Positions 1,030-59,873 of a stretch of DNA of 64,000 nt are shown here, in pieces. The stretch is taken from NCBI RefSeq assembly GCF_051903065.1, contig NZ_CP178438.1. The stretch is one strand, 5' to 3'. The notes beneath the pieces are model-generated. The model was given only the letters and a program-made list of their open reading frames with translations. It had not been told where the DNA came from and did no database searches. The stretch comes from Escherichia coli. GTDB taxonomy: Bacteria > Pseudomonadota > Gammaproteobacteria > Enterobacterales > Enterobacteriaceae. The translations under genes were made by a program, and so were the position numbers. Within the stretch, counting starts at the first letter, position 1. The number at the start of each line of letters is the position of its first letter.

Positions 1030-1290
1030 AATACTCTCTCCTGAATTTATGATTCACGGAAGTAAGCTCTCTATAACTATAATAGCTAAGAATAAGCCTG
1101 GTGAAATTATTCCGTGAAATCCGCTCGCGCGCAGGGTTATATCACGCAGGTGATAATGACTTCCTGTTATATCGCTGATAATAATTTTATATCTTGAGAG
1201 TGTTAATAACAGGTAAATAGTCTTAATTATCAACCAGGAATCATCTTAGAGCGGATGATTTGTCAAACTGCAAATGGTAATGACTCCAAC

Positions 1291-1794
1291 TTATTGATAG
1301 TGTTTTATGTTCAGATAATGCCCGATGACTTTGTCATGCAGCTCCACCGATTTTGAGAACGACAGCGACTTCCGTCCCAGCCGTGCCAGGTGCTGCCTCA
1401 GATTCAGGTTATGCCGCTCAATTCGCTGCGTATATCGCTTGCTGATTACGTGCAGCTTTCCCTTCAGGCGGGATTCATACAGCGGCCAGCCATCCGTCAT
1501 CCATATCACCACGTCAAAGGGTGACAGCAGGCTCATAAGACGCCCCAGCGTCGCCATAGTGCGTTCACCGAATACGTGCGCAACAACCGTCTTCCGGAGC
1601 CTGTCATACGCGTAAAACAGCCAGCGCTGGCGCGATTTAGCCCCGACATAGCCCCACTGTTCGTCCATTTCCGCGCAGACGATGACGTCACTGCCCGGCT
1701 GTATGCGCGAGGTTACCGACTGCGGCCTGAGTTTTTTAAGTGACGTAAAATCGTGTTGAGGCCAACGCCCATAATGCGGGCTGTTGCCCGGCAT
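1291..1794 (-). CDS. insB: IS1 InsB (expressed as InsAB' transposase by -1 frameshift)
   Basis: 167-aa ORF identical to IS1 InsB; overlaps insA in the -1 frame. Confidence 0.95.
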
Positions 1795-1988
1795 CCAACG
1801 CCATTCATGGCCATATCAATGATTTTCTGGTGCGTACCGGGTTGAGAAGCGGTGTAAGTGAACTGCAGTTGCCATGTTTTACGGCAGTGAGAGCAGAGAT
1901 AGCGCTGATGTCCGGCGGTGCTTTTGCCGTTACGCACCACCCCGTCAGTAGCTGAACAGGAGGGACAGCTGATAGAAACAGAAGCCAC
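1713..1988 (-). CDS. insA: IS1 InsA
   Basis: 91-aa ORF identical to IS1 InsA ([22 protein letters not shown]...). Confidence 0.95.
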
Positions 1989-2072
1989 TGGAGCACCTCA
2001 AAAACACCATCATACACTAAATCAGTAAGTTGGCAGCATCACCCTGCAAATCATCCGTAGAGAGGGAAATGG

Positions 2073-9514: not shown

Positions 9515-9949
9515 AGCTTTAATCCTTATTGTTGATGCTTGTTTGCCTGAAAATCAGGCGATTCGTCGTTTTAGTAAACAGTACGAACAGATAAACGGTT
9601 ATTATAATCAACCTGGCTGTGGGTGGCTATAGTTGCGCTTTCTGTACCGGAGAGAAGCTGCGGTACAGAGCATTTTGCGTTATCTACTCTTGACGCCTGC
9701 AAGGGGTAGGTTGGGGAAATATCTTATAGAATCTGACTATGAAACTATTCGTATTAGCTCCGATAAGTTTGATGATGAAAACAGAACTGGCGACAACAAG
9801 TAGCTGCCTTTCTGATGAATTTACCCCAACTTAATATTGTCAACTATCTTCACAGAATCTCCACAATCTCTTCATTATCAGAATATGCACCATGGGTGAT
9901 GCTGCCAACTTACTGATTTAGTGTATGATGGTGTTTTTGAGGTGCTCCA

Positions 9950-10225
9950 GTGGCTTCTGTTTCTATCAGCTGTCCCTCCTGTTCAGCTACTGACGGGGTG
10001 GTGCGTAACGGCAAAAGCACCGCCGGACATCAGCGCTATCTCTGCTCTCACTGCCGTAAAACATGGCAACTGCAGTTCACTTACACCGCTTCTCAACCCG
10101 GTACGCACCAGAAAATCATTGATATGGCCATGAATGGCGTTGGATGCCGGGCAACAGCCCGCATTATGGGCGTTGGCCTCAACACGATTTTACGTCACTT
10201 AAAAAACTCAGGCCGCAGTCGGTAA
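9950..10225 (+). CDS. insA: IS1 InsA
   Basis: Identical 91-aa InsA. Confidence 0.95.
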
Positions 10226-10647
10226 CCTCGCGCATACAGCCGGGCAGTGACGTCATCGTCTGCGCGGAAATGGACGAACAGTGGGGCTATGTCGGGGCTA
10301 AATCGCGCCAGCGCTGGCTGTTTTACGCGTATGACAGGCTCCGGAAGACGGTTGTTGCGCACGTATTCGGTGAACGCACTATGGCGACGCTGGGGCGTCT
10401 TATGAGCCTGCTGTCACCCTTTGACGTGGTGATATGGATGACGGATGGCTGGCCGCTGTATGAATCCCGCCTGAAGGGAAAGCTGCACGTAATCAGCAAG
10501 CGATATACGCAGCGAATTGAGCGGCATAACCTGAATCTGAGGCAGCACCTGGCACGGCTGGGACGGAAGTCGCTGTCGTTCTCAAAATCGGTGGAGCTGC
10601 ATGACAAAGTCATCGGGCATTATCTGAACATAAAACACTATCAATAA
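10144..10647 (+). CDS. insB: IS1 InsB (InsAB' by -1 frameshift at the A6C motif near 10200..10207)
   Basis: Identical 167-aa InsB; ttaaaaaactc slippery run present. Confidence 0.95.
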
Positions 10648-10701
10648 GTTGGAGTCATTACCAAAAGCCAGTCAGACAGCGCAGTTGTTCGTATAAAAGA
10701 T

Positions 10702-26402: not shown

Positions 26403-27890
26403 ATGAATTTTCATCATCTGGCTTACTGGCAGGATAAAGCGTTAAGTCTCGCCATTGAAACCCGCTTATTTATTAACGGTGAATATACTGCTGCGGCGGA
26501 AAATGAAACCTTTGAAACCGTTGATCCGGTCACCCAGGCACCGCTGGCGAAAATTGCCCGCGGCAAGAGCGTCGATATCGACCGTGCGGTGAGCGCAGCA
26601 CGCGGCGTATTTGAACGCGGCGACTGGTCACTCTCTTCTCCGGCTAAACGTAAAGCAGTGCTGAATAAACTCGCCGATTTAATGGAAGCCAACGCCGAAG
26701 AGCTGGCACTGCTGGAAACTCTCGACACCGGCAAACCGATTCGTCACAGTCTGCGAGATGATATTCCCGGCGCGGCGCGCGCCATTCGCTGGTACGCCGA
26801 AGCGATCGACAAAGTGTATGGCGAAGTGGCGACCACCAGTAGCCATGAGCTGGCGATGATCGTGCGTGAACCGGTCGGCGTAATTGCCGCCATTGTACCG
26901 TGGAACTTCCCGCTGCTGCTGACTTGCTGGAAGCTTGGCCCGGCGCTGGCGGCGGGAAACAGCGTGATTCTAAAACCGTCTGAAAAATCACCGCTCAGTG
27001 CGATTCGTCTCGCGGGGCTGGCGAAAGAAGCAGGCTTGCCGGATGGTGTGTTGAACGTAGTAACGGGTTTTGGTCATGAAGCGGGGCAGGCGCTGTCGCG
27101 CCATAACGATATCGATGCCATCGCCTTTACCGGTTCAACCCGTACCGGGAAACAGCTGCTGAAAGATGCGGGCGACAGCAACATGAAACGCGTCTGGCTG
27201 GAAGCGGGCGGCAAAAGCGCCAACATCGTTTTCGCTGACTGCCCGGATTTGCAACAGGCGGCAAGCGCCACCGCAGCAGGCATCTTCTACAACCAGGGTC
27301 AGGTGTGCATCGCCGGAACGCGCCTGTTGCTGGAAGAGAGCATTGCCGATGAATTCTTAGCCCTGTTAAAACAGCAGGCGCAAAACTGGCAGCCGGGCCA
27401 TCCACTTGATCCCGCAACCACCATGGGCACCTTAATCGACTGCGCCCACGCCGACTCGGTCCATAGCTTTATTCGGGAAGGCGAAAGCAAAGGGCAACTG
27501 TTGTTGGATGGCCGTAACGCCGGGCTGGCTGCCGCCATCGGCCCGACCATCTTTGTGGATGTAGACCCGAATGCGTCCTTAAGCCGCGAAGAGATTTTCG
27601 GTCCGGTGCTGGTGGTCACGCGTTTCACATCAGAAGAACAGGCGCTACAGCTTGCCAACGACAGCCAGTACGGCCTTGGCGCGGCGGTATGGACGCGCGA
27701 CCTCTCCCGCGCGCACCGCATGAGCCGACGCCTGAAAGCCGGTTCCGTCTTCGTCAATAACTACAACGACGGCGATATGACCGTGCCGTTTGGCGGCTAT
27801 AAGCAGAGCGGCAACGGTCGCGACAAATCCCTGCATGCCCTTGAAAAATTCACCGAACTGAAAACCATCTGGATAAGCCTGGAGGCCTGA
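26403..27890 (+). CDS. puuC: Gamma-glutamyl-gamma-aminobutyraldehyde dehydrogenase (aldehyde dehydrogenase)
   Basis: ORF 26307..27890; start set at MNFHHLAYWQDK... (495 aa). Confidence 0.9.
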   Translation: MNFHHLAYWQDKALSLAIETRLFINGEYTAAAENETFETVDPVTQAPLAKIARGKSVDIDRAVSAARGVFERGDWSLSSPAKRKAVLNKLADLMEANAEELALLETLDTGKPIRHSLRDDIPGAARAIRWYAEAIDKVYGEVATTSSHELAMIVREPVGVIAAIVPWNFPLLLTCWKLGPALAAGNSVILKPSEKSPLSAIRLAGLAKEAGLPDGVLNVVTGFGHEAGQALSRHNDIDAIAFTGSTRTGKQLLKDAGDSNMKRVWLEAGGKSANIVFADCPDLQQAASATAAGIFYNQGQVCIAGTRLLLEESIADEFLALLKQQAQNWQPGHPLDPATTMGTLIDCAHADSVHSFIREGESKGQLLLDGRNAGLAAAIGPTIFVDVDPNASLSREEIFGPVLVVTRFTSEEQALQLANDSQYGLGAAVWTRDLSRAHRMSRRLKAGSVFVNNYNDGDMTVPFGGYKQSGNGRDKSLHALEKFTELKTIWISLEA

Positions 27891-33687: not shown

Positions 33688-33713
33688 GAGCGGCGCTTAT
33701 GCGCCGTTTTTTT
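33688..33713 (+). terminator. Rho-independent terminator after pspE (gcggcgc-ttat-gcgccg + T7)
   Basis: Hairpin plus T-run read directly. Confidence 0.75.
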
Positions 33714-33884
33714 CTGTCACACCTTATTTACATCCCTATAGATTATTTGCGTCAGCTCACAAATACGCTTTTTCCCTGGTAAAAAATGATTTCCTGCGTG
33801 ACTAAAACCCTTGTGCTCAATTGACAGTTTATTTTCTGCGGAGTAGTCTCTCATTTCATGGGACCGCTACCACGGAAAGGCAAC

Positions 33885-35564
33885 ATGAAACAGAAAATTA
33901 CGGATTACCTGGACGAAATCTACGGTGGAACATTTACCGCAACTCATTTACAGAAACTTGTAACGCGTCTTGAGAGTGCGAAACGATTAATTACACAGCG
34001 ACGTAAAAAACACTGGGATGAAAGTGACGTCGTGTTAATTACCTATGCCGATCAATTTCACAGTAATGGTTTAAAACCACTACCCACATTTAATCAGTTT
34101 TACCATCAATGGCTGCAATGCATTTTTTCACATGTTCATTTATTACCTTTTTACCCATGGTCATCTGATGATGGATTTTCGGTAATTGATTATCATCAGG
34201 TCGCCAGTGAAGCGGGGGAGTGGCAGGATATTCAGCAGCTCGGTGAATGCAGTCATTTAATGTTTGATTTTGTCTGCAACCATATGTCGGCAAAAAGTGA
34301 ATGGTTTAAAAACTATTTGCAACAGCTTCCGGGTTTTGAAGATTTTTTTATTGCGGTTGATCCGCAAACCGATCTCAGCGCTGTCACCCGTCCGCGTGCA
34401 TTACCGCTATTAACGCCGTTTCAAATGGATGATAATTCCACGCGCCATTTATGGACCACCTTTAGCGACGATCAAATTGACCTGAATTACCGTAGCCCTG
34501 ACGTGTTGCTGGCGATGGTGGATGTTTTGCTTTGTTACCTGGAAAAGGGCGCAGAGTATGTCCGCCTGGATGCCGTTGGCTTTATGTGGAAAGAGCCGGG
34601 AACAAGCTGCATCCATCTGGAAAAAACACATCTGATTATCAAACTGTTACGGTCGATTATTGATAACGTCGCGCCAGGCACAGTGATCATTACCGAGACC
34701 AATGTTCCGCATAAAGACAACATTGCTTACTTTGGCAACGGCGATGATGAAGCCCATATGGTGTATCAGTTCTCGTTGCCGCCGCTGGTGCTGCATGCGG
34801 TGCAAAAACAGAACGTCGAGGCGCTGTGCCAGTGGGCGCAAAGTCTGAGCTTGCCCTCCGGTAAAACGACCTGGTTTAACTTCCTCGCCTCTCACGATGG
34901 CATCGGGCTGAACCCACTGCGGGGCTTGTTACCAGAAAGCGAAATATTAGCGCTGGTCGAGGCATTACAGCAGGAAGGTGCATTAGTAAACTGGAAAAAT
35001 AATCCCGACGGTACGCGCAGTCCCTATGAAATAAATGTCACCTATATGGATGCGTTAAGCCGCCGCGAGAGTAGCGATGAAGAACGTTGCGCCAGGTTTA
35101 TCCTTGCCCATGCGATTTTGTTAAGTTTCCCCGGTGTGCCAGCGATATATATTCAAAGTATTCTGGGCTCGCGTAATGATTACGCAGGTGTCGAAAAACT
35201 CGGATATAACCGTGCGATTAACCGTAAAAAATATCACAGTGAAGAGATAACCCGAGAACTGAACGATGAAGCTACATTAAGGCATGCGGTATATCATGAG
35301 TTGTCGCGTTTAATTACACTTCGTCGCAGCCATAACGAGTTTCATCCGGATAATAATTTTACCATCGATACGGTTAATTCATCCGTAATGCGTATTCAAA
35401 GAAGTAACGCAGAGGGTAATTGTCTGACCGGATTGTTTAATGTCAGTAAAAATATTCAGCATGTAAATATTACTGGCCTGCACGGTCGGGATCTGATTAG
35501 TGAAGTTGATATATTGGGTAATAAAATAACGCTGCGCCCCTGGCAGGTTATGTGGATTAAATAA
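33885..35564 (+). CDS. ycjM: GH13-family sugar phosphorylase (sucrose/glucosylglycerate phosphorylase-like)
   Basis: ORF 33858..35564; start set at MKQKITDYLDE... Confidence 0.85.
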   Translation: MKQKITDYLDEIYGGTFTATHLQKLVTRLESAKRLITQRRKKHWDESDVVLITYADQFHSNGLKPLPTFNQFYHQWLQCIFSHVHLLPFYPWSSDDGFSVIDYHQVASEAGEWQDIQQLGECSHLMFDFVCNHMSAKSEWFKNYLQQLPGFEDFFIAVDPQTDLSAVTRPRALPLLTPFQMDDNSTRHLWTTFSDDQIDLNYRSPDVLLAMVDVLLCYLEKGAEYVRLDAVGFMWKEPGTSCIHLEKTHLIIKLLRSIIDNVAPGTVIITETNVPHKDNIAYFGNGDDEAHMVYQFSLPPLVLHAVQKQNVEALCQWAQSLSLPSGKTTWFNFLASHDGIGLNPLRGLLPESEILALVEALQQEGALVNWKNNPDGTRSPYEINVTYMDALSRRESSDEERCARFILAHAILLSFPGVPAIYIQSILGSRNDYAGVEKLGYNRAINRKKYHSEEITRELNDEATLRHAVYHELSRLITLRRSHNEFHPDNNFTIDTVNSSVMRIQRSNAEGNCLTGLFNVSKNIQHVNITGLHGRDLISEVDILGNKITLRPWQVMWIK

Positions 35565-35577
35565 AAAGGAACATCTC

Positions 35578-36870
35578 ATGATTAAATCAAAAATCGTGCT
35601 GTTATCAGCACTGGTTTCCTGCGCCCTGATTTCAGGCTGTAAAGAAGAAAATAAAACCCATGTATCCATCGAATTTATGCATTCTTCGGTGGAGCAGGAG
35701 CGTCAGGCAGTTATCAGCAAATTGATTGCCCGTTTTGAAAAAGAAAACCCAGGTATCACCGTTAAACAAGTGCCCGTGGAAGAAGACGCTTATAACACCA
35801 AAGTCATCACCCTTTCACGTAGCGGCTCGCTGCCGGAAGTGATCGAAACCAGCCATGACTACGCCAAAGTTATGGATAAAGAGCAGCTTATCGATCGCAA
35901 AGCGGTTGCCACGGTCATCAGCAACGTTGGTGAAGACGCGTTTTACGATGGCGTACTGCGTATTGTGCGTACCGAAGATGGGAGTGCCTAGACCGGTGTT
36001 CCCGTCAGCGCCTGGATTGGCGGCATCTGGTATCGCAAAGATGTGCTGGCAAAAGCCGGGCTGGAGGAGCCGAAAAACTGGCAACAGCTGCTGGACGTTG
36101 CACAGAAACTGAATGACCCGGCGAATAAAAAATACGGTATTGCGCTGCCTACGGCAGAAAGCGTGCTGACGGAACAATCCTTCTCCCAGTTTGCGTTATC
36201 CAACCAGGCCAATGTCTTTAACTCTGCAGGCAAAATCACCCTTGATACACCAGAGATGATGCAAGCACTGACCTATTACCGCGACCTTGCCACCAACACC
36301 ATGCCGGGTTCTAACGATATCATGGAAGTGAAAGACGCCTTTATGAACGGCACCGCGCCGATGGCGATTTACTCCACCTATATCCTTCCGGCTGTGATTA
36401 AAGAAGGCGATCCGAAAAACGTCGGTTTCGTCGTGCCAACGGAGAAAAACTCTGCGGTCTACGGCATGTTGACCTCGCTGACCATTACCGCCGGGCAAAA
36501 GACCGAAGAAACGGAAGCAGCAGAAAAATTCGTCACCTTTATGGAGCAGGCGGACAACATTGCCGACTGGGTGATGATGTCGCCAGGCGCGGCACTGCCG
36601 GTGAACAAAGCGGTTGTCACTACCGCCACCTGGAAAGACAACGACGTGATCAAGGCGCTGGGTGAACTGCCGAATCAGTTAATTGGTGAACTGCCAAATA
36701 TTCAGGTTTTTGGCGCAGTAGGGGATAAAAACTTTACCCGCATGGGTGATGTGACGGGTTCTGGCGTGGTGAGTTCAATGGTGCATAACGTCACCGTGGG
36801 TAAAGCCGATCTCTCTACTACGCTGCAAGCGAGCCAGAAAAAACTGGATGAACTGATCGAACAGCACTAA
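35578..36870 (+). pseudogene. ycjN: ABC-transporter periplasmic sugar-binding protein interrupted by an in-frame amber codon (TAG at 35989..35991)
   Basis: ORFs 35578..35991 and 36043..36870 are in the same frame; the protein reads continuously across the single TAG (...RTEDGSA*TGVPVSAWIGG...). Confidence 0.8.
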
Positions 36871-36890
36871 ACCCAGGACAGGAATCCGCA

Positions 36891-37772
36891 ATGAACAGGC
36901 TTTTTTCAGGTCGTTCCGATATGCCCTTTGCGCTGCTGCTTCTCGCGCCCAGCTTATTACTGCTGGGCGGTCTGGTGGCGTGGCCGATGGTGTCGAATAT
37001 CGAAATCAGTTTTTTACGTCTGCCGCTCAATCCCAACATCGAGTCAACGTTTGTTGGGGTGAGTAACTATGTACGCATTCTCTCCGATCCCGGCTTCTGG
37101 CACTCGCTGTGGATGACGGTCTGGTATACGGCGCTGGTGGTGGCGGGCAGCACCGTGCTCGGGCTGGCGGTGGCGATGTTTTTCAACCGCGAGTTCCGCC
37201 TGCGCAAAACCGCGCGTTCGCTGGTGATCCTCTCCTACGTAACGCCGTCTATTTCGCTGGTGTTTGCCTGGAAATACATGTTCAACAACGGCTACGGCAT
37301 TGTGAACTACCTCGGCGTCGATCTTCTGCATCTCTATGAGCAGGCACCGCTGTGGTTCGATAATCCGAGCAGTAGCTTTGTGCTGGTGGTGCTGTTCGCC
37401 ATCTGGCGCTACTTCCCGTATGCCTTTATCTCGTTTCTGGCGATTTTGCAGACCATCGACAAATCGCTGTACGAAGCGGCAGAGATGGATGGCGCTAATG
37501 CCTGGCAACGGTTTCGCATCGTCACGCTGCCCGCAATTATGCCGGTCCTGGCGACGGTGGTGACCCTGCGCACCATCTGGATGTTCTACATGTTCGCTGA
37601 CGTTTATCTGCTGACGACGAAGGTCGATATTCTCGGCGTTTATCTCTACAAAACCGCCTTTGCCTTTAATGACTTAGGGAAAGCGGCGGCGATCTCGGTG
37701 GTGCTCTTCATCATTATTTTCGCTGTCATTCTGCTGACCAGAAAACGGGTGAACCTCAATGGCAACAAATAA
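36891..37772 (+). CDS. ycjO: ABC transporter permease
   Basis: 293-aa polytopic membrane ORF, MalF/G-type. Confidence 0.85.
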   Translation: MNRLFSGRSDMPFALLLLAPSLLLLGGLVAWPMVSNIEISFLRLPLNPNIESTFVGVSNYVRILSDPGFWHSLWMTVWYTALVVAGSTVLGLAVAMFFNREFRLRKTARSLVILSYVTPSISLVFAWKYMFNNGYGIVNYLGVDLLHLYEQAPLWFDNPSSSFVLVVLFAIWRYFPYAFISFLAILQTIDKSLYEAAEMDGANAWQRFRIVTLPAIMPVLATVVTLRTIWMFYMFADVYLLTTKVDILGVYLYKTAFAFNDLGKAAAISVVLFIIIFAVILLTRKRVNLNGNK

Positions 37773-38601
37773 ACGCACACTCAGTCGCATCGGTTTTTAC
37801 TGCGGGCTGGCGCTGTTTCTCATCATCACGCTGTTTCCGTTTTTTGTGATGCTGATGACCTCGTTCAAGAGCGCAAAAGAGGCGATCTCGCTGCATCCTA
37901 CGCTGCTGCCACAGCAGTGGACGCTGGAGCATTACGTCGACATTTTTAACCCGATGATTTTCCCGTTTGTCGACTACTTCCGTAACAGCATGGTGGTGTC
38001 GGTGGTTTCATCCGTGGTGGTGGTATTTCTCGGTATTCTCGGGGCTTACGCGCTTTCTCGCCTGCGCTTTAAAGGTCGGATGACCATCAACGCCAGCTTT
38101 TACACGGTGTACATGTTCTCCGGCATTTTGCTGGTGGTGCCGCTGTTCAAAATTATCACCGCACTTGGCATTTACGACACCGAGATGGCGCTGATCATTA
38201 CCATGGTGACGCAAACTCTGCCCACCGCCGTGTTTATGCTGAAAAGTTACTTCGACACCATCCCTGATGAGATCGAAGAAGCGGCGATGATGGATGGCCT
38301 CAACCGTCTGCAAATCATCTTCCGTATCACCGTGCCCCTGGCGATGTCCGGGCTGATATCGGTGTTCGTCTACTGCTTTATGGTGGCGTGGAACGACTAT
38401 CTGTTTGCGTCGATTTTCCTCTCCAGCGCCAGCAATTTCACCTTACCGGTGGGCCTGAACGCGCTGTTCAGTACGCCTGATTACATCTGGGGACGGATGA
38501 TGGCGGCCTCGCTGGTGACCGCATTGCCGGTGGTGATTATGTATGCGCTTTCGGAACGTTTTATTAAGAGTGGTTTGACCGCCGGTGGCGTGAAGGGCTA
38601 A
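37759..38601 (+). CDS. ycjP: ABC transporter permease
   Basis: 280-aa polytopic membrane ORF. Confidence 0.85.
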   Translation: MATNKRTLSRIGFYCGLALFLIITLFPFFVMLMTSFKSAKEAISLHPTLLPQQWTLEHYVDIFNPMIFPFVDYFRNSMVVSVVSSVVVVFLGILGAYALSRLRFKGRMTINASFYTVYMFSGILLVVPLFKIITALGIYDTEMALIITMVTQTLPTAVFMLKSYFDTIPDEIEEAAMMDGLNRLQIIFRITVPLAMSGLISVFVYCFMVAWNDYLFASIFLSSASNFTLPVGLNALFSTPDYIWGRMMAASLVTALPVVIMYALSERFIKSGLTAGGVKG

Positions 38602-38631
38602 AGCGGCCAGTTTCTTTACAAGGAGTTTTAC

Positions 38632-39684
38632 ATGAAAAAGTTAGTAGCCACAGCACCGCGCGTTGCTGCGCTGGTTGAGTATGAAGATCGGGCGATTTTA
38701 GCCAATGAAGTGAAGATCCGCGTGCGTTTCGGCGCACCGAAACACGGAACGGAAGTGGTCGACTTCCGCGCCGCCAGCCCGTTTATCGATGAAGACTTTA
38801 ACGGCGAGTGGCAGATGTTCACCCCGCGTCCGGCAGATGCGCCGCGCGGCATTGAGTTTGGCAAATTCCAGCTTGGCAACATGGTGGTTGGCGACATTAT
38901 CGAGTGCGGCAGCGACGTTACCGACTACGCGGTGGGCGACAGCGTATGCGGCTACGGCCCGCTCTCCGAGACGGTCATCATTAACGCAGTGAATAACTAC
39001 AAGCTGCGCAAAATGCCGCAAGGCAGCTCCTGGAAAAACGCCGTCTGTTACGACCCGGCGCAGTTTGCCATGAGCGGCGTGCGCGATGCCAACGTACGCG
39101 TAGGGGATTTTGTCGTGGTGGTAGGGCTTGGCGCGATCGGTCAAATTGCCATCCAACTGGCGAAACGCGCTGGCGCATCGGTGGTAATTGGCGTCGATCC
39201 TATCGCCCATCGCTGTGATATTGCCCGTCGCCACGGTGCTGATTTCTGCCTTAACCCCATTGGCACTGACGTAGGCAAAGAGATCAAAACGCTGACCGGC
39301 AAGCAGGGTGCCGATGTGATTATCGAAACCAGCGGTTACGCCGACGCGCTGCAATCGGCGCTGCGCGGTCTGGCCTACGGCGGCACCATCTCTTATGTCG
39401 CGTTTGCCAAACCATTTGCTGAAGGTTTTAACCTCGGACGCGAAGCGCATTTCAATAACGCCAAAATTGTTTTCTCCCGCGCGTGCAGCGAACCGAACCC
39501 GGATTATCCGCGCTGGAGCCGTAAGCGTATTGAAGAAACCTGCTGGGAACTGCTGATGAACGGTTATCTCAATTGCGAAGATTTAATCGACCCGGTAGTG
39601 ACCTTTGCCAACAGCCCGGAAAGCTACATGCAGTATGTCGATCAGCATCCGGAACAGAGCATCAAAATGGGCGTTACGTTTTAA
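38632..39684 (+). CDS. ycjQ: Zn-dependent alcohol/sugar dehydrogenase (MDR family)
   Basis: 350-aa ORF with GLGAIG Rossmann motif. Confidence 0.85.
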   Translation: MKKLVATAPRVAALVEYEDRAILANEVKIRVRFGAPKHGTEVVDFRAASPFIDEDFNGEWQMFTPRPADAPRGIEFGKFQLGNMVVGDIIECGSDVTDYAVGDSVCGYGPLSETVIINAVNNYKLRKMPQGSSWKNAVCYDPAQFAMSGVRDANVRVGDFVVVVGLGAIGQIAIQLAKRAGASVVIGVDPIAHRCDIARRHGADFCLNPIGTDVGKEIKTLTGKQGADVIIETSGYADALQSALRGLAYGGTISYVAFAKPFAEGFNLGREAHFNNAKIVFSRACSEPNPDYPRWSRKRIEETCWELLMNGYLNCEDLIDPVVTFANSPESYMQYVDQHPEQSIKMGVTF

Positions 39685-39701
39685 TTCAAAGGAATGAAAA
39701 A

Positions 39702-40490
39702 ATGAAAATAGGCACACAGAATCAGGCATTCTTTCCGGAAAATATCCGCGAGAAATTTCGTTATATCAAAGAGATGGGCTTCGATGGTTTTGAGATTGAC
39801 GGCAAACTGCTGGTCAACAACATCGAAGAAGTCAAAGCGGCGATCAAAGAAACCGGTTTACCAGTGACCACCGCCTGCGGCGGCTATGACGGCTGGATTG
39901 GTGACTTTATCGAAGAGCGTCGTCTTAATGGCTTAAAGCAGATCGAACGCATTCTCGAAGCGCTGGCAGAAGTGGGGGGTAAAGGTATCGTCGTTCCGGC
40001 AGCGTGGGGCATGTTTACCTTCCGCTTACCGCCGATGACCTCGCCGCGTAGCCTGGACGGCGACCGCAAAATGGTGAGTGATTCCCTGCGCGTACTGGAA
40101 CAGGTCGCCGCGCGTACCGGAACCGTGGTGTATCTCGAACCGTTAAACCGCTATCAGGATCATATGATCAACACCCTCGCCGATGCTCGTCGTTACATCG
40201 TCGAAAACAATCTTAAACATGTGCAGATTATCGGCGATTTCTATCACATGAACATCGAAGAAGATAACCTCGCGCAGGCGCTGCACGACAACCGTGACTT
40301 GCTCGGTCATGTGCATATTGCCGATAACCATCGTTACCAGCCGGGCAGCGGCACCCTCGATTTCCACGCGCTGTTTGAACAGCTGCGCGCCGATAACTAT
40401 CAGGGTTATGTGGTGTATGAAGGGCGTATCCGGGCAGAAGATCCTGCCCAGGCGTACCGTGATTCGTTGGCCTGGTTGCGTACCTGCTAA
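39702..40490 (+). CDS. ycjR: Sugar-phosphate isomerase/epimerase (TIM-barrel xylose-isomerase-like)
   Basis: ORF 39573..40490 overlaps ycjQ; start set at MKIGTQNQAFF... Confidence 0.8.
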   Translation: MKIGTQNQAFFPENIREKFRYIKEMGFDGFEIDGKLLVNNIEEVKAAIKETGLPVTTACGGYDGWIGDFIEERRLNGLKQIERILEALAEVGGKGIVVPAAWGMFTFRLPPMTSPRSLDGDRKMVSDSLRVLEQVAARTGTVVYLEPLNRYQDHMINTLADARRYIVENNLKHVQIIGDFYHMNIEEDNLAQALHDNRDLLGHVHIADNHRYQPGSGTLDFHALFEQLRADNYQGYVVYEGRIRAEDPAQAYRDSLAWLRTC

Positions 40491-40499
40491 GAGGTCTTT

Positions 40500-41555
40500 G
40501 TGAAAAGTGCAATGACAAGCTCTCCGCTGCGTGTCGCGATAATAGGCGCAGGCCAGGTGGCGGATAAGGTTCATGCTTCGTACTACTGCACCCGCAACGA
40601 TCTGGAACTGGTGGCTGTCTGTGACAGCCGCCTTTCCCAGGCGCAGGCGCTGGCAGAAAAATACGGGAATGCATCCGTGTGGGACGATCCGCAGGCCATG
40701 CTGCTGGCGGTGAAACCTGATGTGGTTAGCGTCTGCTCACCTAACCGTTTTCATTACGAACATACCCTGATGGCGCTTGAAGCGGGCTGCCATGTGATGT
40801 GCGAAAAACCGCCCGCCATGACGCCAGAACAGGCGCGGGAAATGTGCGATACCGCGCGCAAACAGGGCAAGGTGCTGGCCTACGACTTTCACCATCGTTT
40901 TGCGCTCGATACGCAACAGCTGCGTGAACAGGTGACCAACGGCGTTTTGGGAGAGATTTACGTTACCACCGCCCGCGCCCTGCGTCGCTGCGGCGTTCCC
41001 GGCTGGGGTGTCTTTACCAATAAAGAACTGCAAGGTGGTGGCCCACTGATCGACATCGGCATTCATATGCTGGATGCTGCGATGTATGTGCTGGGCTTTC
41101 CGGCGGTGAAAAGCGTGAATGCGCATAGTTTTCAAAAGATCGGCACGCAAAAGAGCTGTGGTCAATTTGGCGAGTGGGATCCGGCAACTTACAGCGTCGA
41201 AGATTCGCTGTTTGGCACCATTGAATTTCATAACGGCGGCATTCTGTGGCTGGAAACGTCATTTGCACTCAACATCCGCGAACAGTCGATTATGAACGTC
41301 AGCTTTTGTGGTGATAAAGCCGGTGCGACGCTGTTTCCAGCACATATCTACACCGATAACAACGGTGAATTAATGACGCTGATGCAACGGGAAATGGCAG
41401 ACGACAACCGCCATTTGCGCAGCATGGAAGCCTTTATCAATCACGTACAGGGCAAGCCCGTGATGATAGCCGACGCCGAGCAGGGGTACATCATCCAGCA
41501 ACTGGTGGCGGCGTTATATCAATCCGCAGAAACAGGGACGCGTGTGGAATTATGA
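40500..41555 (+). CDS. ycjS: Gfo/Idh/MocA-family NAD-dependent oxidoreductase
   Basis: 351-aa ORF, GTG start; N-terminal Rossmann fold (RVAIIGAGQVA). Confidence 0.8.
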   Translation: MKSAMTSSPLRVAIIGAGQVADKVHASYYCTRNDLELVAVCDSRLSQAQALAEKYGNASVWDDPQAMLLAVKPDVVSVCSPNRFHYEHTLMALEAGCHVMCEKPPAMTPEQAREMCDTARKQGKVLAYDFHHRFALDTQQLREQVTNGVLGEIYVTTARALRRCGVPGWGVFTNKELQGGGPLIDIGIHMLDAAMYVLGFPAVKSVNAHSFQKIGTQKSCGQFGEWDPATYSVEDSLFGTIEFHNGGILWLETSFALNIREQSIMNVSFCGDKAGATLFPAHIYTDNNGELMTLMQREMADDNRHLRSMEAFINHVQGKPVMIADAEQGYIIQQLVAALYQSAETGTRVEL

Positions 41556-43819
41556 CCAGGCCAGTAACGTTATCAGAACCCCATTTCAGCCAGCATACCC
41601 TGAACAAGTATGCATCGCTGATGGCGCAGGGGAACGGCTATCTTGGGCTTCGCGCCAGCCATGAAGAAGATTACACGCGCCAGACGCGAGGGATGTATCT
41701 GGCGGGGCTGTATCATCGGGCGGGAAAAGGTGAAATCAACGAACTGGTGAACCTGCCTGATATCTTGGGGATGGAGATTGCCATAAATGGTGAGGTTTTC
41801 TCGTTATCCCACGAAGCCTGGCAGCGTGAGCTTGACTTTGCCAGTGGCGAATTACGCCGCAACGTTGTCTGGCGTACCAGCAACGGCGCAGGTTACACCA
41901 TCGCCAGCCGTCGCTTTGTTTCGGCAGACCAACTGCCGCTCATTGCGCTGGAAATCACTATTACGCCACTGGACGCCGACGCGTCAGTGCTGATTTCAAC
42001 AGGTATCGACGCCACGCAAACCAACCACGGTCGCCAACATCTCGACGAAACCCAGGTGCGGGTGTTTGGTCAGCATCTGATGCAGGGGATCTACACCACC
42101 CAGGATGGACGCAGTGATGTGGCCATCAGCTGTTGCTGTAAGGTGAGCGGTGATGTGCAGCAATGCTATACCGCCAAAGAGCGCCGTTTGCTGCAACATA
42201 CCAGTGCGCAGCTTCATGCAGGCGAGACAGTGACGTTGCAAAAACTGGTGTGGATCGACTGGCGGGATGACAGGCAAGCCGTTTTAGACGAGTGGGGCAG
42301 CGCGTCGCTTCGCCAGCTTGAAATGTGCGCGCAGCAGAGTTACGACCAACTTCTTGCAGCATCAACAGAAAACTGGCGTCAATGGTGGCAGAAACGTCGT
42401 ATCACGGTAAATGGCGGCGATGCGCACGATCAGCAAGCGTTAGATTATGCGCTTTATCATCTGCGCATCATGACGCCGGCTCACGACGAGCGCAGCAGTA
42501 TTGCGGCAAAAGGCTTAACCGGCGAAGGCTACAAAGGCCACGTTTTCTGGGATACAGAAGTATTTTTGCTACCGTTTCATCTGTTTAGCGATCCGACGGT
42601 TGCCCGAAGTTTACTGCGTTATCGCTGGCACAACTTGCCTGGCGCGCAGGAGAAAGCGCGACGCAATGGCTGGCAGGGCGCGCTATTTCCGTGGGAAAGC
42701 GCGCGCAGCGGCGAAGAAGAGACGCCAGAATTTGCCGCCATTAACATTCGTACCGGGCTGCGGCAAAAAGTGGCCTCGGCGCAGGCGGAACATCATCTGG
42801 TGGCCGATATCGCCTGGGCGGTTATTCAATACTGGCAGACCACGGGGGATGAAAGTTTCATTGCTCATGAAGGCATGGCGCTACTTCTGGAAACTGCAAA
42901 GTTCTGGATTAGCCGCGCGGTGAGGGTTAACGACCGTCTGGAAATTCATGATGTTATTGGGCCAGACGAATATACCGAACATGTCAATAATAACGCCTTC
43001 ACCAGCTATATGGCGTATTACAACGTCCAGCAGGCGCTGAACATCGCCCGCCGGTTCGGCTGTAGCGACGTTGCGTTTATCCATCGCGCCGAAATGTTCC
43101 TCAAAGAGTTGTGGCTGTCAGAAATTCAGCCCGACGGCGTTTTGCCGCAGGATGATTCGTTTATGGCTAAGCCGGCGATTAATCTGGCGAAATACAAAGC
43201 GGCGGCGGGGAAGCAAACCATTCTGCTGGATTATTCACGCGCAGAAGTGAACGAGATGCAGATCCTCAAACAAGCTGATGTGGTGATGCTCAATTACATG
43301 CTGCCGGAGCAGTTCTCAGCGGCATCGTGTCTTGCCAATCTGCAATTTTATGAACCGCGCACTATTCACGACTCGTCATTAAGTAAAGCAATCCACGGCA
43401 TTGTTGCCGCACGCTGTGGCCTGCTGACCCAAAGTTATCAGTTCTGGCGCGAAGGGACTGAAATCGATCTTGGTGCTGATCCGCATAGTTGTGATGATGG
43501 TATCCATGCTGCCGCAACTGGCGCTATCTGGCTGGGGGCGATTCAGGGTTTTGCCGGGGTGAGCGTGCGTGACGGTGAATTGCATCTAAATCCGGCGTTA
43601 CCTGAGCAGTGGCAACAGTTGTCTTTCCCTCTGTTCTGGCAGGGCTGCGAATTACAGGTCACGCTCGACGCGCAGCGTATTGCGATTCGAACTTCTGCGC
43701 CCGTTTCACTGCGTTTGAACGGGCAGCTTATATCCGTGGCTGAAGAATCTGTTTTCTGTTTGGGTGATTTTATTTTGCCCTTCAATGGGACCGCTACCAC
43801 GCATCAGGAGGATGAATGA
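41552..43819 (+). CDS. ycjT: GH65-family glycoside phosphorylase (kojibiose phosphorylase-like)
   Basis: 755-aa ORF. Confidence 0.85.
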
Positions 43820-44475
43820 AACTGCAAGGGGTAATTTTCGATCTGGATGGTGTAATCACCGACACCGCGCATCTGCATTTCCAGGCGTGGCAGCAGATTG
43901 CCGCTGAAATTGGCATCAGCATTGATGCGCAGTTTAACGAATCCCTAAAAGGGATTAGCCGCGATGAGTCTCTGCGGCGCATTCTGCAATACGGGGGCAA
44001 AGAGGGCGACTTTAACTCGCAGGAGCGGGCGCAACTGGCGTATCGCAAAAATCTGCTCTACGTCCACTCACTGCGCGAACTGACGGTTAATGCCGTTCTG
44101 CCGGGGATCCGGCCTTTGCTGGCAGATCTCCGCGCACAGCAGATCCCGGTAGGGCTGGCTTCCGTCTCCCTGAATGCGCCGACGATTTTAGCGGCGCTGG
44201 AGCTGCGCGAGTTTTTCACCTTCTGCGCGGATGCTTCCCAACTTAAAAACTCGAAACCGGATCCGGAAATCTTTCTCGCTGCCTGTGCTGGGCTGGGCGT
44301 GCCGCCGCAGGCATGTATCGGCATTGAAGATGCGCAGGCGGGCATTGACGCCATTAACGCCAGCGGTATGCGCTCGGTGGGGATCGGCGCGGGCTTAACC
44401 GGGGCGCAATTACTGTTGCCTTCAACGGACTCCCTGACCTGGTCGCGGTTATCGGCCTTCTGGCAAAACGTATAG
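43816..44475 (+). CDS. ycjU: Beta-phosphoglucomutase (HAD family)
   Basis: 219-aa ORF with HAD motif DLDGVITDT. Confidence 0.9.
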
Positions 44476-44488
44476 CAAAGGAATCAAC

Positions 44489-45571
44489 ATGGCTCAGCTT
44501 TCGTTACAACATATTCAAAAAATCTACGATAACCAGGTGCATGTGGTGAAGGACTTCAACCTGGAAATTGCCGATAAAGAGTTCATCGTATTTGTCGGCC
44601 CGTCGGGCTGCGGTAAATCGACCACCCTGCGCATGATTGCCGGGCTTGAGGAGATCAGCGGCGGCGATCTGTTGATCGACGGCAAACGAATGAATGACGT
44701 TCCAGCCAAAGCACGCAATATCGCGATGGTGTTCCAGAACTACGCGTTGTATCCGCATATGACGGTTTACGACAACATGGCGTTTGGCCTGAAGATGCAA
44801 AAAATCGCCAAAGAGGTGATTGATGAGCGGGTGAACTGGGCGGCGCAAATTCTCGGCCTGCGTGAGTACCTGAAACGCAAGCCGGGCGCGCTTTCCGGCG
44901 GGCAACGTCAGCGAGTGGCGCTCGGGCGGGCGATTGTACGCGAAGCGGGCGTGTTTTTAATGGATGAACCGCTCTCTAACCTTGATGCCAAGCTGCGCGT
45001 GCAAATGCGCGCAGAGATCAGCAAGCTGCATCAGAAACTGAACACCACCATGATCTACGTGACCCACGATCAGACCGAAGCGATGACCATGGCGACGCGG
45101 ATTGTGATTATGAAAGACGGGATTGTTCAGCAAGTGGGTGCGCCGAAAACCGTTTATAACCAACCCGCGAATATGTTTGTTGCCGGATTTATTGGATCAC
45201 CAGCGATGAATTTTATTCGCGGCACGATCGATGGCGATAAATTCGTTACGGAAACGCTTAAATTAACCATTCCCGAAGAGAAATTAGCGGTTCTGAAAAC
45301 ACAGGAAAGTTTGCATAAGCCCATCGTGATGGGAATGCGCCCGGAAGATATTCATCCGGACGCGCAAGAGGAAAATAATATTTCCGCCAAAATTAGCGTG
45401 GCAGAATTAACCGGTGCGGAATTTATGCTCTACACCACGGTTGGGGGGCACGAGTTAGTGGTCCGTGCTGGTGCGTTAAATGATTATCATGCAGGAGAAA
45501 ATATCACTATTCATTTTGATATGACTAAATGTCATTTCTTTGATGCAGAAACGGAAATAGCAATTCGCTAA
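44489..45571 (+). CDS. ycjV: ABC transporter ATP-binding protein (MalK-like), apparently intact
   Basis: 360-aa ORF with Walker A (GPSGCGKST), signature LSGGQRQR and C-terminal regulatory domain. Confidence 0.85.
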   Translation: MAQLSLQHIQKIYDNQVHVVKDFNLEIADKEFIVFVGPSGCGKSTTLRMIAGLEEISGGDLLIDGKRMNDVPAKARNIAMVFQNYALYPHMTVYDNMAFGLKMQKIAKEVIDERVNWAAQILGLREYLKRKPGALSGGQRQRVALGRAIVREAGVFLMDEPLSNLDAKLRVQMRAEISKLHQKLNTTMIYVTHDQTEAMTMATRIVIMKDGIVQQVGAPKTVYNQPANMFVAGFIGSPAMNFIRGTIDGDKFVTETLKLTIPEEKLAVLKTQESLHKPIVMGMRPEDIHPDAQEENNISAKISVAELTGAEFMLYTTVGGHELVVRAGALNDYHAGENITIHFDMTKCHFFDAETEIAIR

Positions 45572-45615
45572 ATACAGGGGGAAGGCATTCCCCCAGGATA
45601 ATACAAGGAACAATA

Positions 45616-46521
45616 ATGAAAAAGTTATTACCCTGTACCGCACTGGTGATGTGTGCGGGAATGGCCTGCGCACAGGCCGAGGAAAAGAACGACTGGCACT
45701 TTAATATCGGCGCGATGTACGAAATAGAAAACGTCGAGGGTTATGGCGAAGATATGGATGGGCTGGCGGAGCCTTCTGTCTATTTTAATGCCGCCAACGG
45801 GCCGTGGAGAATTTCTCTGGCCTATTATCAGGAAGGGCCGGTAGATTATAGCGCGGGTAAACGTGGAACGTGGTTTGATCGCCCGGAGCTGGAGGTGCAT
45901 TATCAGTTCCTCGAAAGCGATGATTTCAGTTTCGGTCTGACCGGCGGTTTCCGTAATTATGGTTATCACTACGTTGATGAACCGGGTAAAGACACGGCGA
46001 ATATGCAGCGCTGGAAAATCGCGCCAGACTGGGATGTGAAACTGACTGACGATCTACGTTTCAACGGTTGGTTGTCGATGTATAAATTTGCCAACGATTT
46101 GAACACGACCGGTTACGCTGATACCCGTGTCGAAACGGAAACAGGTCTGCAATATACCTTCAACGAAACGGTTGCTTTGCGAGTGAACTATTATCTCGAG
46201 CGCGGCTTCAATATGGACGACAGCCGCAATAACGGTGAGTTTTCCACGCAAGAAATTCGCGCCTATTTGCCGCTGACGCTCGGCAACCACTCGGTGACGC
46301 CGTATACGCGCATTGGGCTGGATCGCTGGAGTAACTGGGACTGGCAGGATGATATTGAACGTGAAGGCCATGATTTTAACCGTGTTGGTTTATTTTACGG
46401 TTATGATTTCCAGAATGGTCTTTCCATTTCGCTGGAATACGCGTTTGAGTGGCAGGATCACGACGAAGGCGACAGCGATAAATTCCATTATGCAGGTGTC
46501 GGCGTAAATTACTCGTTCTGA
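45616..46521 (+). CDS. ompG: Outer membrane porin G
   Basis: 301-aa ORF with signal peptide and C-terminal aromatic residue (..NYSF). Confidence 0.9.
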   Translation: MKKLLPCTALVMCAGMACAQAEEKNDWHFNIGAMYEIENVEGYGEDMDGLAEPSVYFNAANGPWRISLAYYQEGPVDYSAGKRGTWFDRPELEVHYQFLESDDFSFGLTGGFRNYGYHYVDEPGKDTANMQRWKIAPDWDVKLTDDLRFNGWLSMYKFANDLNTTGYADTRVETETGLQYTFNETVALRVNYYLERGFNMDDSRNNGEFSTQEIRAYLPLTLGNHSVTPYTRIGLDRWSNWDWQDDIEREGHDFNRVGLFYGYDFQNGLSISLEYAFEWQDHDEGDSDKFHYAGVGVNYSF

Positions 46522-46534
46522 TAATGGGCTAAAT

Positions 46535-46594
46535 TGCCGGATGCGGCGCGAGTACTTTATCCGATCTATAAATGTAGGCCGGATAAGATGCGCC
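46535..46594. repeat. REP elements; the second is split by IS150 and continues at 48027..48051
   Basis: gccggatgcggcgcgag...ttatccg, then taggccggataagatgcgcc | IS150 | gccagcatcgcatccggca. Confidence 0.65.
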
Positions 46595-47124
46595 TGAACT
46601 GCACCCCAAATGTTGGACATAATCTGACATCTGAAGGTGCAGTTTATGAAACATTCATTTGAAGTAAAACTTGCCGCTGTAAATCATTACCTGGCCGGTC
46701 ATGCAGGCATCATTTCTACGGCAAAACTCTTTCAACTTTCTCACACCAGCCTCTCACACTGGATTAATCTTTTTCTTCTTCACGGTCCTCAGGCACTGGA
46801 TTGCAGACACAAGCGTAGCTATTCTCCTGAAGATAAACTTTGCGTGGTTCTTTATGCTCTCGGGCATTCTGAGTCTCTACCCCGGGTAGCTGCCCGGTTT
46901 AACATTCCCAGCCACAACATGGTTAAAAACTGGATAAAAGGCTACCGCAAATCTGGTAATGAGGCCTTTATCAGGCGCAGGAAGGAGAAAAGCATGACCC
47001 GTTCTGATGATACCCATGAAAACGAGGCAAACATGACGCCGGAAGAGATGAAGAATGAGCTGCGTTATCTTCGCGCAGAAAATGCATATCTGAAAGCCAT
47101 GCAGGAGCATCTCCTGGAAAAAAA

Positions 47125-48020
<896 letters not shown>

Positions 48021-48066
48021 TGTTCAGCCAGCATCGCATCCGGCATTCAGGCAAGGTCGCTGGTAT

Positions 48067-49065
48067 TTATTTCAGCGTCATATGCGTGGCAACGGTAATA
48101 TTTTGTGGTGACGGTTTTCCGGCAATTAAGCGGAATAATAACTCACAGCTTTGTTGACCTAACTCCTGCGTCGGAACATCGATGCCGCCCGGTGCAGGCG
48201 TTAAAATAAATGACAGCGTTTCATTGCTATAACCCACCACCGCTAACTGCTGCGGAATAGCAATGTTTTTCTCTGCCGCCGCACGATAAATGCTCATTAA
48301 TTTCAGGCTGTCAGTGGCAAACACTGCCTCAGGCAACGGTGACTGACTTAATAATTGCCGTGCTGCTTGCAGTGCTGTTTCATGGGTATAACCGCCATCA
48401 ACAATCCATTCATCACGCACTGCAATATTATGATCTTCCAGACTCTGCTTATAACCATTTACCCGATCCACTGAAACATGGACATCAAGCGGTGCATGCA
48501 GACAGGCAATATTTTGATGTCCACTTTCAATTAACGCATCGGTCAACGCAATGCTGTCACCAAAATTATCGGTATCGACAGAATAAACATGGGCATATTG
48601 ACCTTCAACTTTGCCAATCACCACCACAGGAATATCGTATTTATCAAGTTGCGCAAAAAATGACTCATCCGCTGGCGAACTTAGCATAATAATGCCTTTA
48701 ATCATTTTCTGCTTAATTTTGCTTTCACATTTTTGTAAGTCTTCTGCCGGGTTGTGCGACGTCTGCAATATCACGTCGAAACCTTCTTCTTCCGCTTTGG
48801 CGGTGATGGCATGTAGAACCTCTGAGAAAAACGGATTACCCGCCGTAGTTTTGGTTGAACGGGTAGAAATCACCATAATGGCATCAAAACCCGAAGAGGT
48901 CAGCGCGCGGGCCAGCTTGTTTGGCTGATACTGTAATTCTTCAATGGCCCGTAACACTTTTTCGCGCGCTTCCGGGGAGATATTAGTTTGCTTATTCAGC
49001 ACGCGTGATACGGTGGATTTTGATACGCCTGCAACCCTGGCAATATCATAAATAGTAGGGGACAT
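48067..49065 (-). CDS. ycjW: LacI-family transcriptional regulator
   Basis: 332-aa ORF with N-terminal HTH ([21 protein letters not shown]). Confidence 0.9.
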
Positions 49066-49219
49066 AGGTCAGGAACTCCGTCCGAACGTGAATGCTGCAC
49101 ATCTTATGGAGTTCGCCCGTCGATGACAACACGGGCAGTTGATAATCAATGGCCTGGCCCCCACATTCATATCCTTACGAACGATTTTTTTCTGGTCTTC
49201 AGAGCAGCACAGGACAGCA

Positions 49220-59537: not shown

Positions 59538-59873
59538 CACTACTTGCTGATACATTAATTTAATTCTTCTCTTAACGTATTCTCAGTTCCTTTCAACGTT
59601 TTGGTTATTTTTTATTCTTCGTACAATGGCGACAGATGCTGATTATGATACCGAAAACTGGTTTGAACGTGTGAAGCCCGAACGTAGTGTTCGGTGTTCT
59701 ATGTGCTTTGCCGCATTTTGGCGTCTATTATTTACACTAAATATGATTTAATATATTGATACATAAAACATTTTATGCTTCCTGTGTCACTTTTTTGATG
59801 GAAGTTGTTTGCATTTCTTTAAGGCGAAACAAATAATTACGCATCAATTTTAATGTCGGTTAGAGGGAAACTT

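Follow-up and report, generated by a model that had tools for sequence, protein, structure and literature searches.

The ycjN gene, which encodes the sugar-binding protein of the YcjNOPV importer, is very probably a young, lineage-specific pseudogene in the Escherichia coli genome analyzed here, produced by one G>A transition that converted the Trp138 codon TGG into the amber codon TAG. The gene lies in a window of 64,000 nucleotides (contig NZ_CP178438.1, assembly GCF_051903065.1). The mutation originated in a single clone of E. coli and was carried along as this clone spread, as shown by its distribution among genomes and contigs described below. The ycj cluster, which is dispensable and has been repeatedly eroded in natural E. 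coli, has suffered many independent lesions, of which this is one; ycjN is in this respect an ordinary recent pseudogene, of modest value as one data point on the erosion of the cluster.

Sequence and ancestral state of the ycjN locus

Read in frame 1, the ycjN locus comprises 431 codons, with a sole internal stop, at codon 138, and a normal TAA at the end, exactly the situation reported in a preliminary description of this DNA, which had noted a single in-frame TAG splitting an ORF of about 430 codons. In the list of ORFs, the gene is cut into two pieces in the same frame, one spanning 35578..35991 (137 aa) and the other corresponding to the C-terminal remnant (Table 1), and precomputed matches to the Pfam families PF01547 and PF13416 fall on these two fragments. 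When Trp is restored at position 138, the protein aligns with K-12 YcjN (PDB 8VQK) over residues 1-430 (E = 1.3e-279) and shows full-length similarity to YcjN-type sugar substrate-binding proteins (SBP_bac_1, subcluster D-I). The gene also occupies its expected place in the ycjM-N-O-P-Q-R-S-T-U-V-ompG cluster, in which the gene order is the same as in K-12. Besides ycjN, the remaining genes of the operon are intact, including those for YcjO, YcjP, and YcjV and for all enzymes of the cluster; the 360-codon ORF of ycjV bears out the earlier statement that this gene is undamaged in the window.

The N-terminus of YcjN carries a lipoprotein signal, with a lipobox that is read directly from the sequence as MIKSKIVLLSALVSCALISG followed by C. 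YcjN has been characterized as a lipoprotein binding protein of structural subcluster D-I that is acylated at Cys21, with diacylation demonstrated (PMC11543891). The designation "periplasmic binding protein" in the preliminary description is thus to be refined, the protein not being free in the periplasm.

Table 1. Positions of the features of the ycjN locus and the transporter genes in the window
Feature	Coordinates	Strand	Remarks
ycjN pseudogene	35578..36870	+	430 codons plus terminal stop, interrupted at codon 138
ycjN signal peptide and lipobox, intact	35578..35640	+	LISG/C, Cys21 codon 35638..35640; read from sequence
Premature amber TAG, ycjN codon 138	35989..35991	+	Derived base A at 35990; ancestral TGG (Trp138)
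ycjN C-terminal remnant ORF	36043..36870	+	GTG start, 275 aa, same frame
C-rich, G-poor stretch in untranslated part of ycjN	36166..36315	+	C/G about 2 in 78-nt windows; candidate Rho-loading site
ycjN T5 run, intact in window	36703..36707	+	One T lost in sister sub-lineage of TAG carriers
ycjO, permease subunit, intact	36891..37772	+	293 aa
ycjP, permease subunit, intact	37759..38601	+	280 aa; derived A88V (C>T at 38021) common to 23CRST027/031
ycjV, ATPase subunit, intact	44489..45571	+	360 aa; G6 run 45443..45448

A megablast search with ycjN against 5426 complete E. coli genomes produced a match in 5001. Two of these, the Ecuadorian genomes 23CRST027 (NZ_AP045789.1) and 23CRST031 (NZ_AP045800.1), of human faecal origin, have a ycjN with 100% identity to that of the window, and in both, PGAP annotates the identical gene as pseudo with the label "internal stop." The ycjN pseudogene is therefore already known, being flagged in the RefSeq annotation, and no natural ycjN nonsense allele is apparent in the titles and abstracts of the papers listed as mentioning ycjN. 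The next allele in order of similarity, from ECNB21-M121 (meat, China), is 99.9% identical to that of the window, and the best match after it is 98.3% identical. The ECNB21-M121 allele is a single base apart from the window, at position 35990 (G there, A here), and reads TGG. Because the nearest intact allele differs only at this position, the lesion is a G>A transition from TGG to TAG, the change that had been put forward earlier as one possibility. Alignment with other E. coli also identifies TGG as the ancestral codon: Trp is encoded at codon 138 in PapRG-06-5, in K-12 (8VQK), and in an unrelated metagenome contig (L016). This position is occupied by Trp in the close orthologue 7V09 and by Tyr in more distant sugar-binding proteins. 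The locus accordingly combines an in-frame stop, in an ORF that runs uninterrupted in relatives, with a sense codon at the same position in the closest of these, the signature of a nonsense pseudogene.

Distribution of the amber allele and alternative readings of the stop codon

Compared with 23CRST027, the window contains one SNP, at 26657, over 21 kb; compared with 23CRST031, it contains two, at 26657 and 47162, over 41 kb, none of them in ycjN. The SNP at 26657 is synonymous, lies in puuC, and is private to the window. Given only one or two SNPs outside ycjN, the window is evidently, as judged from its sequence, a further genome of the clone represented by 23CRST027 and 23CRST031. Among the 5001 RefSeq complete genomes with ycjN, these two are the only carriers of the TAG allele. 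Outside this set, an exact look-up of the 137-aa YcjN product returned 65 index blocks, and the product is present on 49 contigs (NCBI, ENA, and Logan; several submitters). An intact 430-aa allele is carried by 104 contigs of the same lineage and is thus commoner than the TAG product. Lineage-specific alleles of YcjO and YcjV, on 161 and 158 contigs, respectively, come near the sum of both ycjN states. Several other truncated YcjN alleles cluster with the 137-aa product; most of these are labelled "partial" and are probably contig-end artefacts, and one, from a long-read assembly, is the product of a frameshift. Such N-terminal fragments are not reliable as evidence of further independent nonsense alleles.

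A second lesion is present in part of the TAG carriers. In GCA_949766195.1 and in the assembly of run SRR13019302, one T is missing from the T5 run, which results in a frameshift in ycjN. The 225-aa remnant that follows from this deletion is encoded on 16 contigs, compared with 31 that encode the unshifted 275-aa remnant, so that about a third of the TAG carriers bear the second lesion. A second disabling mutation at this frequency points to relaxed constraint after the nonsense lesion and shows that the part of ycjN 3' of the stop is no longer maintained.

These observations bear on three readings under which ycjN would not be a pseudogene. The reading that the TAG stems from an error of sequencing or assembly and that the gene is really intact is extremely unlikely: a single-base difference does fit the type of an error, and the nearest relative has G at 35990, but the same base is found in the two RefSeq complete genomes, in GCA_949766195.1, and in at least three assemblies from unrelated runs (ERR3317511, SRR21141812, and SRR13019302), all with the identical allele. 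This reproduction in independent assemblies, the number of contigs that encode the 137-aa product, and the location of the site outside any homopolymer all argue against an error. The probability that the locus is naturally composed of two genes for a split binding protein is smaller still, close to nil. Although gene callers give two products, the 137-aa protein and, on 31 contigs, a separate 275-aa protein, all homologues examined, three solved structures among them, are single chains of about 430 residues, and the two-gene arrangement that the preliminary description regarded as speaking against a nonsense mutation was not seen among them. Both pieces share one reading frame, with the stop and 17 codons between them, and the second has neither a signal peptide for export nor a clear Shine-Dalgarno sequence upstream.

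Partial rescue through readthrough or suppression of the amber codon, with some full-length YcjN still made, is very unlikely, if somewhat less so than an error. In its favour, the other transporter genes and the enzyme genes of the operon have all stayed intact, and the stop is followed by A (TAGA), which is not the strongest termination context. Against this reading, the stop is confined to one sub-lineage rather than conserved, and the frameshift in the T5 run, being beyond rescue by readthrough, is evidence that the downstream frame is not under selection in about a third of the carriers. A tRNA scan of the 64-kb window detected no tRNA genes. Inactivation of ycjN by the amber mutation is thus the reading that we adopt for what follows.

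Predicted loss of uptake, erosion of the ycj cluster, and other features of the window

Translation of the mutant allele would stop after 137 residues, so that the two-lobed binding protein would lack over two thirds of its length; the approximately 116 residues left in the mature protein are probably too few for a two-lobed fold. With the signal peptide and lipobox kept, a short lipidated YcjN stub may be exported, but it would have no binding site, and the C-terminal remnant, if translated at all, would have no export signal. ABC importers of the binding-protein-dependent type do not normally work without that protein, as established for the maltose system. A megablast search of 23CRST027 found a single copy of ycjN and no second ycjN-like place. 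Because neither a cognate binding protein nor a second copy of ycjN is at hand, YcjOPV-mediated uptake is likely, by analogy, to be lost despite intact YcjO, YcjP, and YcjV. As to the compound transported, a nanoDSF screen detected no binding to YcjN for any tested ligand, including kojibiose and maltose (PMC11543891), and a role in relation to maltose has been claimed for YcjN in a later paper (PMC13053599). The mutation could also affect downstream genes: with 0.9 kb of ycjN left untranslated, Rho-dependent termination might occur and reduce expression from ycjO to ompG. Given the base composition of the candidate Rho-loading stretch (Table 1), such polarity on ycjO through ompG is plausible.

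The permease gene ycjP carries missense changes in several TAG sub-lineages, namely A88V in the window and the Ecuadorian genomes, P257S in another sub-lineage (L007), and A176V, located in the EAA coupling motif, in a third (L008). Three of the six SNPs among TAG carriers fall in ycjP, which makes up 5.5% of the compared length, in a look-up whose display favours contigs that differ from one another. We considered whether these changes could compensate for the loss of ycjN and rejected this possibility: A176V and P257S are rare (two contigs and one contig, respectively), and A88V is found, too, in L016, which belongs to an unrelated E. coli lineage (96.8% identical) and has an intact ycjN. 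The proposal that A88V, A176V, and P257S would adapt an orphaned YcjOPV to work without its binding protein, in the manner of MBP-independent malF/malG mutants, is thus unsupported.

Damage to the ycj cluster extends well beyond this clone. No ycjN match was found in 425 of the 5426 complete E. coli genomes (~8%), and when the 25-kb region was followed through an evenly spaced sample of the matches, 4 of 59 chromosomes retained the flanks only. In PK8275, pspE directly adjoins ycjX, and the segment corresponding to window positions 33694..49206 (ycjM to ycjW) is absent. In P276M, a deletion bounded by IS1 extends from ycjM to ompG; WL164 combines an internal stop in ycjM with a deletion from ycjR to ycjT; and in PI7, ycjM, ycjN, and the 5' end of ycjO are lost beside prophage remnants and pgmB is frameshifted. 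The statement of the preliminary description that the transporter was inactivated in two lineages therefore holds as far as it goes but understates the extent of the loss, the cluster being damaged or absent in many lineages.

Repeated damage of this kind raises the question of selection. If knockout of the ycj importer were advantageous, the loss of ycjN would have been selected, and recurrent hits would be expected; the amber codon here, the frameshifted ycjV of K-12 and wild bovine isolates, the other deletions and pseudogenes, and the absence of the cluster from PK8275 are compatible with this expectation, as is the presence of the TAG allele on about a third of the sampled contigs of its lineage. 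Yet the lesions affect enzyme, porin, and transporter genes alike, as predicted by neutral decay of a rarely used locus, ~92% of genomes retain ycjN at a coverage of at least 80%, and clonal hitch-hiking accounts for the frequency of the allele equally well. We therefore regard selection for the loss of ycjN as unlikely, and the more specific claim that loss of the importer is under recurrent positive selection, with different subunits hit in different lineages, as rather less likely again. Because genes of all three kinds are affected alike, neutral erosion of a rarely needed locus fits the lesions of the ycj cluster better than selection targeted against the importer.

Several other features of the window are of note. 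An IS1397 element (IS3 family) occupies 46594..48026, where the 3' ends of ompG and ycjW converge; in other E. coli, the match to the window breaks off after 46593 and resumes at 48027, around the element. The insertion is present also in ECNB21-M121 and, because ycjN is intact in that strain, predates the TAG mutation. Further upstream, an IS1A copy at 9895..10662 abuts a gene for an RND efflux permease at 10654..13014, the N-terminus of which is missing according to PGAP. The permease gene is followed by genes for an outer-membrane factor and an MFS transporter, and the block lies between fabI and sapF. With this permease gene, inactivated by an IS insertion, the window contains a second pseudogene of a transporter. 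Another IS1A copy (1276..2043), between osmB and yciT, is annotated as frameshifted in 23CRST027, and an ungapped comparison of the window with that genome goes out of register from about position 1546, inside this element, which suggests an indel difference between the two within the IS1A copy. Finally, a 75-bp fragment of queH (epoxyqueuosine reductase) with both ends absent is annotated by PGAP in the matching 23CRST027 sequence, at about 59635..59709 of the window, between pgrR and mppA.

Comparison with K-12 and other known systems

The importer is also defective in K-12, as the preliminary description had stated. In the MG1655 annotation, ycjV (b1318) and ymjB (b4524) are pseudogenes, and alignment reveals a 1-bp deletion in the G6 run that is intact in the window; the deletion puts the last ~40 codons of the gene out of frame. 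In at least part of the literature, including metabolic-engineering studies, K-12 ycjV is taken as a known pseudogene. A 49-mer specific for the G5 allele was found in 371 genomes, and its G6 version in 4620; the G5 genomes are nearly all K-12 laboratory derivatives, with the addition of a few wild isolates, bovine ones among them. The latter include the non-K-12 Okinawa isolates OkiPb01676 and OkiPb01710, and in OkiPb01676 (L017, NZ_AP042480.1), the one of the two that was examined, PGAP marks ycjV as "frameshifted." The loss of G in these isolates reflects either slippage that recurs at this homopolymer as a mutational hotspot or an assembly error in the homopolymer.

Because different genes and different types of mutation are involved, the inactivation of ycjV in K-12 and that of ycjN in the window are independent, as had been proposed on the condition that both lesions are real. 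K-12 is the main strain in which the ycj cluster has been studied, and it has a broken gene for the importer ATPase; work on transport by YcjNOPV needs all four genes intact. ECNB21-M121 (TGG) and 23CRST027 (TAG) form a natural pair with very few SNPs around the locus.

Among known systems, the ycjN pseudogene with an "internal stop" in 23CRST027 and 23CRST031 represents the very allele of the window, in genomes of its own clone, with nothing of substance to distinguish it. K-12 YcjN (b1310; 8VQK) resembles the protein of the window in being encoded between ycjM and ycjO, in its length, signal peptide, and Cys21, and in showing few residue differences over 430 positions, but its gene has TGG at codon 138, whereas the window has TAG and encodes only the first 137 residues. 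A parallel in kind is offered by ycjV'/ymjB of K-12 (b1318/b4524), where, as in ycjN here, a lesion of a single nucleotide has inactivated an importer subunit within one lineage. There, however, the lesion lies near the 3' end and removes the C-terminal regulatory domain from the ATPase, whereas in the window ycjV is intact and it is the binding protein that has been lost.
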